A program made the translations under genes and the position numbers. A stretch of DNA of 64,000 nucleotides from Shigella phage ESh32, in the sequence record ON528742; one strand, given 5' to 3'. This document shows positions 4,672-9,494 of this stretch, piece by piece. Numbering within the stretch: the first letter of the stretch is position 1; the number at the start of each line of letters is the position of its first letter. Under the pieces are notes generated by a model that saw only the letters and a program-made list of their open reading frames with translations, had not been told where the DNA came from and did no database searches.

Positions 4672-4874
4672 GCCAAACTAGTATTCTTAAAAATGCCCAC
4701 TGTGAAAAGTGTAAATGGCCGGTTGTTTTTGCTTTATGTAATGATGAAATGGCTTGTGGTTTCGATTATTGGTGCTATTGTTCTAATAAAGGATGCATCA
4801 ATCATAAAGGTGAAGGATTTTATTCGGGATTTTATCCTTATCCTGATTTCGTTAAAGAAGGTAAACCAAAATGA
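4662..4874 (+). CDS. cysteine-rich small protein
   Basis: 70-aa ORF with CxxC...C...CxC...C pattern. Confidence 0.5.
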   Translation: MVMSQTSILKNAHCEKCKWPVVFALCNDEMACGFDYWCYCSNKGCINHKGEGFYSGFYPYPDFVKEGKPK

Positions 4875-5044
4875 ATAGTTTTGAGTTACAATACGAAGTG
4901 TTACGTGAGCTTGATAATTTAATTGAACTCGCTGTTAATAAAGGTTTTGCCATTGGAATCGGTCAAAAAGATACTGGTCATTTAACTATGGAAATATTTA
5001 AGCAAAAGCGAATTATTTTAAAACTCCTGGAAATTAATATATGA
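4871..5044 (+). CDS. hypothetical small protein
   Basis: 57-codon ORF read from sequence (not in track); ATGA overlaps at both ends. Confidence 0.4.
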   Translation: MNSFELQYEVLRELDNLIELAVNKGFAIGIGQKDTGHLTMEIFKQKRIILKLLEINI

Positions 5045-5226
5045 GTCTGAGTAAAGAACAAAAAGATAAATTATTTGAGCTTATCCATGAACTTCTAGAT
5101 GAGCATACAGAAGCAAACACCTTTTATGATGAATACGGCCCGTTATCTCCCGAACAGCAGGAAGAATTTGCTGATCGGTTTGATAAGAAAGAAAATGAAT
5201 TAATAGCTTATGTGAATACGCTTTAA
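5041..5226 (+). CDS. hypothetical acidic small protein
   Basis: 61-aa ORF, ATG overlaps upstream stop. Confidence 0.5.
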   Translation: MSLSKEQKDKLFELIHELLDEHTEANTFYDEYGPLSPEQQEEFADRFDKKENELIAYVNTL

Positions 5227-6084: not shown

Positions 6085-6378
6085 ATGGCCTTAAAAGCAA
6101 CGGCACTATTTGCCATGCTAGGATTGTCATTTGCTTTATCTCCATCGATTGAAGCGAATGTCGATCCTCATTTTGATAAATTTATGGAATCTGGTATTAG
6201 ACATGTTTATATGCTTTTTGAAAATAAAAGCGTAGAATCATCTGAACAGTTCTATAGTTTTATGAGAACGACCTATAAAAATGACCCGTGCTCTTCTGAT
6301 TTTGAATGTATAGAACGAGGCGCGGAGATGGCACAATCATACGCTAGAATTATGAACATTAAATTGGAGACTGAATGA
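6085..6378 (+). CDS. rI: lysis-inhibition regulator RI
   Basis: 97-aa ORF MALKATALFAMLGLSFALSPSIEANVDPHF... with N-terminal signal-anchor; matches remembered T4 RI. Confidence 0.8.
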   Translation: MALKATALFAMLGLSFALSPSIEANVDPHFDKFMESGIRHVYMLFENKSVESSEQFYSFMRTTYKNDPCSSDFECIERGAEMAQSYARIMNIKLETE

Positions 6379-6761
6379 AATTCAGCGACTTTTCACAAAG
6401 TGGAAAACCTTCAAAGGCAGATGAATACTTAGGTTTATTAATGGCTGCACAAGCTTATTTTCATTCTGCACATTTTGAAACTAAAAGTTATGCTAGACAC
6501 AAAGCATACGATTTTATTTTCTCCGAGTTGCCAGATTTGATTGATAAATTTGGTGAGCAATATTTGGGGTATTCTGGTAGAAAATACACGCCTTCAATTC
6601 CAGATGCCAGTAAACTTCCTACCGACACAATTAAAATGATTGATCGCATACTAGACCAATCTAACAGCATTTACAAAGAAATGCCTCCAGCCATTCAAAG
6701 CACGATAGATGATATTACTGGAATGTTTTACCAGAGTAAATATCTTCTTTCCCTCGAATAA
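6375..6761 (+). CDS. hypothetical protein (rI-adjacent)
   Basis: 128-aa ORF; ATGA overlap with rI stop. Confidence 0.55.
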
Positions 6762-6765
6762 CGTT

Positions 6766-6788
6766 AGTCTCCTTCGGGAGACTTTTTT
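6766..6788 (+). terminator. intrinsic terminator (UUCG-loop hairpin + T-tract)
   Basis: agtctccttcgggagact followed by tttttt. Confidence 0.7.
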
Positions 6789-6798
6789 CATTTTACCG

Positions 6799-6829
6799 GT
6801 TTACTTTCCGTTTGAGCTGTGATACTATA
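6799..6829 (+). promoter_or_regulatory. T4-type early promoter
   Basis: ggtttactttcc ... gatactatac; part of a cassette repeated at 47679-47771. Confidence 0.5.
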
Positions 6830-6856
6830 CAACTATCGGATAAAGAGGAGAACATC

Positions 6857-7045
6857 ATGAAAATTGAAGCACTCAATCAAGAAGGAAATATCTACGTTAT
6901 CATTAATGGTGATTTTTTCGTCGACATGGATGAAGTTACTAGTGAAGAACTTGTAGAACTTCTTAAGAAACGTTATAATATGTGTGATGAAGTTGCAACT
7001 CACATGGCGTGTGCAATATTCTCTCTGTCATATGTGGTGGAATAA
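6857..7045 (+). CDS. hypothetical small protein
   Basis: ORF 6812..7045; ATG at 6857 preceded by AAGAGGAG. Confidence 0.5.
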
Positions 7046-7248
7046 TGATTAGTATAGAGCAAGCAGATAAAATCAAGGAATTAGTGGCTTCAATTCGTAA
7101 AGCAGATGAAGAGCTGATTGACTTTGCTTGGTATTCATCGGGTATTTCGAATAAAGGCATTAAAGACTTTGAAACTAAAGTGGATAATGCTTTAGAAGCG
7201 TTAGATATGTTTCTTGATGAAATTATCGATCATAATACGAGAGTTTAA
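7045..7248 (+). CDS. hypothetical small helical protein (tandem family member)
   Basis: ORF 7009..7248; ATG at 7045. Confidence 0.5.
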   Translation: MISIEQADKIKELVASIRKADEELIDFAWYSSGISNKGIKDFETKVDNALEALDMFLDEIIDHNTRV

Positions 7249-7250
7249 GT

Positions 7251-7445
7251 ATGCTAACACGTGAACAGTTTGAAAAAATCATTAAATTAGCACGTGATAT
7301 TGAAATAGATTCATACCAATTAGCAGTTGAGCATTGTGAAGGATATTCATACGACGGTATAGAAGCAGCTAAAAGAGATTTGGATAAATCCAAAGCTAAG
7401 TTAGTTCAATATCTTGAAATGATTAGGTGGAATAATGAAAACTGA
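7251..7445 (+). CDS. hypothetical small helical protein (tandem family member)
   Basis: 64-aa ORF MLTREQFEKIIKLARD... Confidence 0.5.
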   Translation: MLTREQFEKIIKLARDIEIDSYQLAVEHCEGYSYDGIEAAKRDLDKSKAKLVQYLEMIRWNNEN

Positions 7446-7608
7446 AAAGCAGATGTTTTTAATGAAGCTAATTGAAGAATATGCTAATGCAGTTTCTGAC
7501 TATGAGTATTCTGCTCGGGAAAGAGGTACGGCTTTCGCTAAAGAAGAATTGAAAATCATGGTTGATGCTCATACAAAGCTTCAGAATTTTATCGAAAACG
7601 TCATTTAA
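7435..7608 (+). CDS. hypothetical small helical protein (tandem family member)
   Basis: 57-codon ORF read from sequence: MKTEKQMFLMKLIEEYANAV... Confidence 0.4.
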   Translation: MKTEKQMFLMKLIEEYANAVSDYEYSARERGTAFAKEELKIMVDAHTKLQNFIENVI

Positions 7609-7610
7609 TG

Positions 7611-7640
7611 GTTTACAAGTTGGCAAGGTTATGGTATAGT
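7611..7640 (+). promoter_or_regulatory. T4-type early promoter
   Basis: gtttacaagttggcaaggttatggtatagt. Confidence 0.55.
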
Positions 7641-7668
7641 AATCTTGTCGACTGCCAAGGAGAAGAGA

Positions 7669-7773
7669 ATGAAAGTTTTGTTTGTTGTGTATGTGATGAT
7701 TCAATATAATTACCCAATGTTTACTTATAATTTGGTAAACAACATTATTGATATGATTCAGAGGAGTATGTAA
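7669..7773 (+). CDS. possible small hydrophobic peptide
   Basis: 34 codons with AAGGAG RBS after the promoter. Confidence 0.3.
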   Translation: MKVLFVVYVMIQYNYPMFTYNLVNNIIDMIQRSM

Positions 7774-7940
7774 TGACAAGTGAGCAGGCTTTTAAATTAA
7801 GAGAATTAATTGAGACGTATAGTAAAGCTGTTCATACATCAACAATTATTGATGAATCAGCTTTCTCCGGACATGCTAACAAGATTAAATACAAAACTCT
7901 TATGGAAGAAGCTAAAGTAAATCTTGATTCTTATATTTAA
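7773..7940 (+). CDS. hypothetical small helical protein (tandem family member)
   Basis: 55-codon ORF MTSEQAFKLRELIETYSKAV...; TAATG overlap. Confidence 0.4.
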   Translation: MTSEQAFKLRELIETYSKAVHTSTIIDESAFSGHANKIKYKTLMEEAKVNLDSYI

Positions 7941-7959
7941 ACTTTAATTGGTAAATAAT

Positions 7960-8502
7960 ATGAAAGCTGTAATTGAAACAACTGATTTGTTCGGTGACTT
8001 AGTTATCGAAAAACGCGGTAATGTATACGTTCTGACGCAGGAAGACGATAGTATTACTATTCTTCCTATGGAACTGGCTGCGATTTTATCTTATGCTCCC
8101 TCAGGAGTTACCGGTGTAACTAATATTACAGGTGACCTCCAAGTTCGTTTTTATCGTGGCCTTTACGGCGGTAATATTGAAACTGAATTTATGTGTCTTT
8201 CTATCAGCAATTGGGCAACATTCGTTGTCAAGGTGAAAGAATTCTTAGAATCTGAAACAGTCGAAACACCCGAAAAGGCTAAACTTCAATGGGCTAAAGA
8301 TCGCGGTGCTAACATTATTAATCCAGTAGCTGCAAATTATACTACGACTTTGGATGTCAAGACTTCTTATGAAGATGGCGATGTCGTACTTGTTCGCCAA
8401 AATGATGATTCTCGAGCACATATTGTCACATTTACCAAAGACGAAGCTATTGCGCTAAAGACTTATCTTGATTCTGTCATTCCAACTATGATTTCAAAGT
8501 GA
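7960..8502 (+). CDS. hypothetical protein (paralog of 8509..9030)
   Basis: ORF 7948..8502 (TTG at 7948); ATG at 7960; C-terminus ...EAIALKTYLDSVIPTMISK. Confidence 0.55.
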   Translation: MKAVIETTDLFGDLVIEKRGNVYVLTQEDDSITILPMELAAILSYAPSGVTGVTNITGDLQVRFYRGLYGGNIETEFMCLSISNWATFVVKVKEFLESETVETPEKAKLQWAKDRGANIINPVAANYTTTLDVKTSYEDGDVVLVRQNDDSRAHIVTFTKDEAIALKTYLDSVIPTMISK

Positions 8503-8508
8503 GGAAAT

Positions 8509-9030
8509 ATGTTTATTTCAAGTGGAAGTGGTTTAATTCGTGTTGAATTTAAAAATGATATTTTCCTTATTCAAGGAGATGATATTATTAAAATGAGTTA
8601 TGATGAAATCAAGAAAATTTGTCATACTCTTGAAAGCCGTGGAAACGTAAATGCTGTTATTGACATTGGTGATTTATGGGTAACGCTTTATGAAGTATCC
8701 GAAGGATTTAATATTGAAGATGAAAATAACATTTTAGCTATTGATAAAAGAACTGATTTGTTTGATGTATTAAAAGCCTATGAACAGTCAAATGGTGGAA
8801 GAAAAGCTGTATTGATTTATCAAAAACCACATTCATGCGGAACTGCTTCAATCATTTCAAATATTGAAGGCGAAGCTGATACTTATATGTGTGTTTTAAA
8901 AGCTGGTGGTGACCGTCATCCGGATTTTATTTCTATTCGTCAAAACAATGGAGAAATTTCATTATCAAAATCAGAAGCTGAAGCTATGATTAAGTATTTA
9001 ACAACTGTTACGCCTTCAATGAAAGGATAA
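8509..9030 (+). CDS. hypothetical protein (paralog of 7960..8502)
   Basis: 173 aa; C-terminus ...EAEAMIKYLTTVTPSMKG parallels upstream gene. Confidence 0.55.
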   Translation: MFISSGSGLIRVEFKNDIFLIQGDDIIKMSYDEIKKICHTLESRGNVNAVIDIGDLWVTLYEVSEGFNIEDENNILAIDKRTDLFDVLKAYEQSNGGRKAVLIYQKPHSCGTASIISNIEGEADTYMCVLKAGGDRHPDFISIRQNNGEISLSKSEAEAMIKYLTTVTPSMKG

Positions 9031-9032
9031 TT

Positions 9033-9494
9033 ATGATTATTAATGAAAATTCTTGGCATTATAAATTATTCAAATTGTTTAACGATGAATGGCAACGACC
9101 TAAGACACTATGCGCATATTTTTGGTCTATTGCCATTCCTACATTTTTCGTTTCTATTTTTGGATGTACTATACTCGTAGGGCTAACAATTATTTGTGCA
9201 GAAAGCCTACAACGTTGGCTTATTTTCGGTAGTTTATGGACTCTTCTTCCATCGGCATTTATATTTGCGCTTTTGGCTGTTTTACTTATTATTGGTTCAT
9301 TTGTTATTCCTGTACATTTGCGTGAAAAATATAAAGATTATAAATGGAAAAAGGATTATGCTTTACACGTAGAAAACATTGATAGGAAAAATAAAGGTTT
9401 ACCTCCTATTCAACCCAAGAAATCGATTATCGTTGAATTTTTAAAAGCTCGTAAAGCTAAAGTATGTCCTGTTATTGAATATAAGGCTGAATGA
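9033..9494 (+). CDS. integral membrane protein
   Basis: 153 aa with at least three hydrophobic helices. Confidence 0.55.
   Translation: MIINENSWHYKLFKLFNDEWQRPKTLCAYFWSIAIPTFFVSIFGCTILVGLTIICAESLQRWLIFGSLWTLLPSAFIFALLAVLLIIGSFVIPVHLREKYKDYKWKKDYALHVENIDRKNKGLPPIQPKKSIIVEFLKARKAKVCPVIEYKAE

Follow-up and report, generated by a model that had tools for sequence, protein, structure and literature searches.

The DUF7438 locus

In the 64,000-nucleotide (nt) stretch of Shigella phage ESh32 DNA analyzed here (sequence record ON528742; hereafter, the window), four small genes follow one another on the plus strand: A (7045-7248, 67 amino acids (aa)), B (7251-7445, 64 aa), C (7435-7608, 57 aa) and D (7773-7940, 55 aa here and 61 aa in relatives). 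An original prediction, made from the letters alone, had described these open reading frames (ORFs) as a tandem array of helical paralogs of 55-67 aa with a common N-terminal pattern, and all four are found where it placed them, on the same strand and with the N-termini that it quoted. A is the ortholog of T4 mobD.4 and B that of T4 mobD.3, C corresponds to T4 mobD.2a in full-length form, and D is an accessory copy with no counterpart in T4. The four belong to Pfam family PF24219 (DUF7438), and that they are genuine paralogous genes, in identity as well as in homology, is almost certain from the comparisons described below. The array was correctly drawn as to its four members, but a fifth copy, of the Tk.2 type and located on the plus strand directly upstream of tk (5041-5226), had been overlooked.

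The 1.9 kb round the array is 97-99% identical to many genomes of Tequatrovirus (T4-like phages), and gene order is collinear with T4 in the succession tk, rI.1, rI, rI.-1, mobD.5, mobD.4, mobD.3, mobD.2a, mobD.2, mobD.1 and nrdC.11, with all genes on the plus strand; to judge by these similarities, the window is a Tequatrovirus genome.

Homology of the small proteins

All four proteins, as well as the copy beside tk, match the PF24219 model, which has 57 positions and a gathering threshold of 25 bits, over their full length (coverage 1-54/57 or better). Scores are 58.9 bits for A (E = 6.5e-16), 63.3 for B (E = 2.7e-17), 57.5 for C (E = 1.8e-15), 52.5 for D (E = 6.2e-14) and 69.6 for the tk-side copy (E = 2.9e-19), with E-values of the four spanning 6e-14 to 3e-17. 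The Pfam model may already include these subfamilies, and profiles from which one subfamily at a time had been left out were run as an independent test. Each omitted protein ranks fifth among the 1190 ORFs of the window, after the other four members, with E between 4e-4 and 4e-11, and the best ORF from outside the family reaches only E >= 0.08. These profiles include sequences from other genera and replaced hhalign on shallow ortholog alignments, in which single subfamilies yielded probabilities of 83% for A-B, 42% for C-D and 43% for Tk-B, no other subfamily pair being significant. Pairwise Smith-Waterman comparisons against 2000 shuffles, of the kind by which the original prediction could have been refuted, are significant for A-D (z 6.8, 0/2000), A-B (z 3.6, 13/2000) and C-D (z 3.5, 17/2000); the remaining three pairs among A-D do not rise above the controls when taken alone. 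Paralogy of the four is thus upheld by end-to-end matches to PF24219, by three of the pairwise comparisons and by the leave-one-out profiles.

The same family accounts for five proteins of T4, namely Tk.1, Tk.2, MobD.4, MobD.3 and a truncated MobD.2a, all of which match DUF7438 above threshold. The 5041-5226 copy shares 33 of 61 positions with T4 Tk.2 (z 26.9), and is recovered by a profile that holds no Tk sequences at all. T-even genomes thus carry two small DUF7438 clusters, the first next to tk and the second in the mobD region. Three neighboring ORFs were considered as members and rejected: mobD.5, which has no PF24219 match and a shuffle z <= -0.2 against every paralog; a 34-aa peptide encoded between C and D, which bears no similarity to the four paralogs in shuffle tests; and the 57-aa ORF at 4871-5044, which has no detectable resemblance to the family and matches no Pfam model. 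The latter ORF sits in the slot of the second tk-side copy of T4. NCBIfam holds no family for any member, and Rfam returned no match on 6500-8500.

In T4 itself, mobD.2a (NC_000866, 57996-58165; L002 5497-5678) is annotated as a 38-aa gene, and both hidden Markov model and tblastn searches recover it in two pieces. The two pieces correspond, in different reading frames, to the N-terminal and the C-terminal half of the family profile, so that the T4 gene is a frameshifted form of a 57-aa gene that most relatives carry intact. D is altered in the window, where a change of GAA to TAA at 7938 (stop codon at 7938-7940) removes the last six residues (ETLIGK/E) present in the near-identical relatives NBEco003 and IMG/VR locus L007, and turns the TAATATG junction of relatives into a 19-nt gap before the next gene.

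At the DNA level, the only repeat found in the array is an identical 13-nt junction, GGTGGAATAATGA, that precedes A and C (7036-7048 and 7426-7438) and combines a Shine-Dalgarno-like sequence, the stop codon of the upstream gene and the overlapping ATG. That no other repeat exists indicates that the duplications are old and that none is recent.

Predicted fold and conserved positions

The helical character proposed for these proteins is borne out by AlphaFold2 models of two copies, B and D, calculated as monomers from a 24-sequence family alignment. B is predicted as an antiparallel hairpin of helices 4-30 and 34-63, at a predicted local distance difference test score (pLDDT) of 95, and D, the most divergent copy, as one of helices 3-28 and 34-54 (pLDDT 88). 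A single antiparallel two-helix hairpin is therefore the fold expected, with high confidence, for the family, and the predictions show the two modeled copies as acidic-to-neutral proteins of ~6-7.6 kDa. Net charges run from -10 in the tk-side copy and -7 in A, through -3 and -2, to -1 in D, with isoelectric points of 4.3-6.0.

Fold searches yield only generic hairpins. Foldseek against the PDB gave no match at E <= 0.001, the family profile found nothing below E 0.1 among the sequences of solved structures, and matches in BFVD are limited to uncharacterized proteins of other T4-like phages (such as Merlin, PM2, EcS1 and IME523).

Column statistics reveal two conserved elements. The first is a hydrophobic, heptad-like a/d seam, formed by columns 10, 13, 14, 17, 20 and 24 on one side and 40, 44, 47, 51, 54, 55 and 58 on the other. 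The second is a polar motif at the start of helix 1, T/S-x-E-Q-x-x-K (columns T/S3, E5, Q6 and K9; window positions 7257-7277 in B), whose glutamate and glutamine are found in 28 and 24, respectively, of 30 sequences; this motif could serve to cap the helix or as a contact site that the paralogs have in common. Positions outside the seam and the motif are variable and charged, and the hairpin tip differs between paralogs.

Transcription and early expression

Early promoters of T4 are of the sigma-70 type and follow the consensus GTTTAC-N14-gtggTAttaT. On the plus strand of the window, an intrinsic terminator (6766-6783), with a 7-bp stem containing four GC pairs and followed by a T-run, closes the rI.-1 unit, and next comes the early promoter of the mobD.5 operon (6799-6828, GTTTAC-N14-gtgaTActaT), of which the mobD.5 ortholog (6857-7045, plus strand; phrog_3024, E = 2e-44) is the first gene. 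In T4, primer extension has located the mobD.5 early promoter (PMC1702504). The early promoter that had been proposed within the array is located between C and the 34-aa peptide (7611-7640, plus strand, GTTTAC-N14-atggTAtagT), agrees with the consensus at 10 of 12 positions, carries a TG extension in addition, and lies in a region that retains ~70% DNA identity in Mosigvirus. Both promoters and the terminator are annotated at the matching positions in phage SA21RB.

The start codon of A overlaps the stop codon of mobD.5 (TAATG), C overlaps B by 11 nt, and mobD.5, A, B and C all abut or overlap, as do the 34-aa peptide gene and D. This arrangement suggests translational coupling within the mobD.5-A-B-C group and, separately, within the peptide-D pair. 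The peptide itself (7669-7773, plus strand), which had been put forward as a possible 34-codon gene, proves to be a real one: it matches T4 mobD.2 and phrog_3515 (E = 2.8e-22), it is preceded by a strong AAGGAG ribosome-binding site, its stop codon overlaps the start of D, and it is under purifying selection (see below).

Time-resolved omics of T4 (PMC9697503 supplement) list mobD.3 and mobD.4 as early in both RNA and protein, and Tk.1 and Tk.2 as early in RNA and middle in protein; mobD.2, mobD.2a and mobD.5 are early in RNA, with no protein detected. Taken together, the promoters identified here and the expression of the T4 orthologs place the genes in the T4 early class, in keeping with the early region named in the original prediction.

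Distribution and copy number

Among 50,697 phage records, C is found in 642, B in 588 and A, the most variable copy, in 504; D is found in 192, including T6, RB3 and RB18, and the tk-side copy in 741. These counts make A, B and C near universal in Tequatrovirus and D accessory, and the comparison of presence and absence across T-even relatives that had been suggested as a check thus reveals that copy number differs. In Tequatroviruses the tk-side copy comes in two deeply diverged alleles, with identities of ~54% versus 98-100%.

When 1.84 billion representative proteins were searched with the family profile, only 23 matches were obtained at E <= 1e-3, of which 16 are small (38-76 aa); the seven long ones (522-1729 aa, matched in multiple stretches) are taken to be noise. 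All match sources that could be traced are T4-like phages or records with phage-sized contigs. Retrieval of related loci with B alone yielded seven. By these searches the family is shown as restricted to phages and, so far as its matches reach, confined to T4-like ones.

Other genera keep different selections of the copies. Gaprivervirus RZ has A'-B', VR25 has B' alone together with two tk-side copies, and in TH54 D'-A'-B' precedes a DksA/TraR zinc-finger gene; the order in Mosigvirus is C', an unrelated ORF, the peptide and D'. The paralog subfamilies are older than the divergence of Tequatrovirus, Gaprivervirus and Mosigvirus from one another. It is of note that the mobD.2a slot of RZ (L003 3409-3663) and TH54 (L019 4562-4819) is occupied by an 85-aa DksA/TraR-type protein with a C4 zinc finger, for which, at this Gaprivervirus-like locus, a connection to RNA polymerase is likely, and which adds another type of small early protein to the site.

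Selection

Rates of nonsynonymous and synonymous substitution (dN and dS) were estimated by the pairwise method of Nei and Gojobori on a small sample of orthologs. Values of dN and dS are 0.08 and 0.55 for A, 0.006 and 0.12 for B, and 0.007 and 0.17 for C; dN/dS between orthologs of ~0.04-0.15 points to purifying selection. The 34-aa peptide behaves in the same manner (dN 0.012, dS 0.12-0.28), and remains 62% identical in Mosigvirus. The most variable segment is the hairpin tip of A (codons 22-41, 7108-7167), where dN is 0.14-0.26 and dS is 1.1-1.8 or saturated, as compared to a dS of 0.3-0.4 in the rest of mobD.4 and of ~0.1 in the flanking genes; T4 mobD.4 has a seven-residue deletion at this tip. 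Within the limits of this small sample and pairwise method, dN/dS above 1 was found neither gene-wide nor in the tip of A, whose variability looks like that of old alleles moved by recombination rather than the outcome of positive selection. The description of the array as diversifying is therefore not sustained: dN/dS is low, synonymous sites in the mobD.4 tip are saturated, and the subfamilies predate the split of the genera.

Neighboring genes

Downstream of the array, two adjacent paralogs of T4 mobD.1 (7960-8502 and 8509-9030) contain Pfam domains T4_y05I_N and T4_y05I_C ('putative transcription factor'), the first paralog being only ~47% identical to T4 mobD.1. The second, together with a 153-aa membrane protein (9033-9494), occupies the site of the HNH homing endonuclease gene mobD of T4, which is absent from the window. 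Upstream, rI.-1 (6375-6761) matches only Pfam DUF5856, and the label 'starvation-inducible transcriptional regulator' that is commonly given to it looks unsupported.

Possible functions of the DUF7438 proteins

In the literature searched, DUF7438 is not mentioned, and no function is given for mobD.2a, mobD.3, mobD.4, tk.1 or tk.2. The explanation that we favor starts from host RNA polymerase, which would transcribe the array genes from the two sigma-70-type early promoters, after which A, B and C would be translated as a coupled block. The proteins would be binding modules without enzymatic activity that have a scaffold in common, and each would dock on a different macromolecule of host or phage during the first minutes of infection, with a modulating or inhibitory effect. 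Inhibition of host factors, the role suggested in the original prediction, would be a reasonable guess. Different partners are proposed because the hydrophobic core and the N-terminal motif are all that the paralogs have in common. The hairpin genes would be dispensable in laboratory hosts, and of use in some hosts or conditions only; a viable T4 that lacks nrdC.11-mobD.3 was recovered in a genome-reduction study (PMC9825161), and databases hold matching B::nrdC.11 fusion proteins (P0079 and P0085). The family itself may have arisen by old tandem duplication, with copies being gained and lost between genera.

The explanation as a whole, in which paralogous early DUF7438 genes encode hairpins that serve as binding modules, appears to us evenly balanced between being right and wrong, and the mechanism at its core, small modules with different partners, is put forward tentatively, with somewhat more doubt than belief. 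Several points weigh against it. The mechanism is drawn from size, fold, timing and pattern of conservation only; retention of the polar motif could reflect a single contact common to all copies instead of different ones; dN/dS over whole genes bears no signature of an arms race; and the structural models cover two of the five copies, as monomers only.

A more specific version would see the genes as a birth-and-death family of early counter-defense or host-takeover binders, in which each paralog neutralizes a different host protein and D, or the two Tk.2 alleles, act as determinants of host range. If true, this would explain the variation of copy number and alleles in otherwise near-identical T-even genomes despite purifying selection on each copy, but we consider it unlikely.

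Alternatively, adjacent hairpins could assemble, with a neighboring paralog or with a second molecule of their own kind, into four-helix bundles such as ROP-like hairpins form; the array would then supply the parts of one small complex, or of a few, and not independent binders. Such an assembly is favored by the coupling of A, B and C, but we rate it as distinctly unlikely: the number of copies in other genera ranges from one to three, in varying combinations and orders, D is optional and C is frameshifted in T4, and this variable content makes an obligatory hetero-complex improbable.

Less probable still is a direct role at nucleic acids, either through RNA binding of the ROP type or through DNA mimicry by the most acidic copies (the Tk.2-type protein, at -10, and mobD.4, at -7), a mode of action known from other acidic early proteins of phages. 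The ROP-like fold, the run of net charges (-10, -7, -3, -2 and -1) and early expression could be read in this manner, but the hairpin fold is generic, the proteins match neither Pfam Rop nor the sequence of any solved structure, and a net negative charge argues against direct binding of RNA or DNA; mimicry, for its part, cannot be a property of the whole family, since the charge is not conserved (-1 in D).

That the ORFs have no function, being chance reading frames or remnants undergoing decay where the genome is plastic, has very little probability. The region can be deleted in T4, T4 mobD.2a is frameshifted, D is truncated in the window, and MobD.2a, MobD.2 and MobD.5 escaped T4 proteomics; nevertheless, dN/dS of 0.04-0.15, the retention of A, B and C in ~500-640 genomes and across genera, the detection of MobD.3 and MobD.4 as proteins and the confident structure predictions already contradict this reading for A, B and C. 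Finally, the product names carried by many GenBank/RefSeq records and by PHROG 4859, 'molybdopterin-guanine dinucleotide biosynthesis protein MobD' for homologs of mobD.4 and mobD.3 and 'helicase loader' for D, have virtually no chance of being right for hairpins of 55-67 aa: no molybdenum-cofactor family of Pfam or NCBIfam is matched, the first label most likely deriving from the T4 gene name (mobD of T4 being a mobile HNH endonuclease), and D, with 55 aa as opposed to the 217 of gp59, aligns to gp59 of the T4 relative Mosigvirus AV110 with a score of 34 (z 1.4) that is reached by 294 of 3000 shuffles.

Returning to the binding modules, the novelty of the family as such is low, in that it is already curated as Pfam DUF7438 and the T4 annotation has included its genes for decades. 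What is gained is that five small ORFs of the tk-mobD stretch of the window become one family with one simple fold, which turns several puzzles into one question and makes family-wide deletion or tagging a clean experiment. T4 is among the most intensively studied of phages, and yet many of its early genes, including this five-member family, are without an assigned function. The analysis also draws attention to two erroneous product names that are being propagated across hundreds of phage records. No novel type of system has come to light.

Comparison with known systems

Among small helical proteins, ROP/Rom of ColE1 and other antiparallel hairpins of ~60 aa, such as SSV1 D-63 and designed hairpin oligomers, have no sequence relationship to DUF7438. 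Pfam Rop is not matched down to E = 1, nor is there a match among PDB sequences, and the structural match to ROP/Rom is no better than that to hundreds of unrelated coiled coils; the DUF7438 proteins, in addition, are acidic.

Other parallels may be found among early proteins of T4-like phages whose targets have been identified. T4 55.2, a small, non-essential early protein, is an inhibitor of topoisomerase I (PMC4396842), and Emp of Mosigvirus AV110 targets MreBCD (bioRxiv 10.64898/2026.09.14.751387). Like the DUF7438 proteins, both are small early proteins that the phage can do without and that occur in T4-like phages only, and by this analogy the DUF7438 proteins may be placed in the same functional class; 55.2 and Emp (a 109-aa alpha/beta protein) are, however, unrelated to them in sequence and fold, and have demonstrated targets and toxicity. 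In the same 2026 preprint, 45 early proteins of AV110 were screened for growth inhibition (bioRxiv 10.64898/2026.09.14.751387). This screen is not used as evidence here, given that its gp numbers (gp135, gp204, gp208 and others) cannot be mapped to GenBank coding sequences; gp94 is the 91st coding sequence, and no constant offset fits.

The nearest known system is the DUF7438 set of T4 itself, with which the window is in exact synteny for A, B and C. The two genomes differ in D, which has no T4 counterpart; in C, which is full length here and frameshifted in the T4 reference; and beside tk, where the window has one copy and T4 has two.

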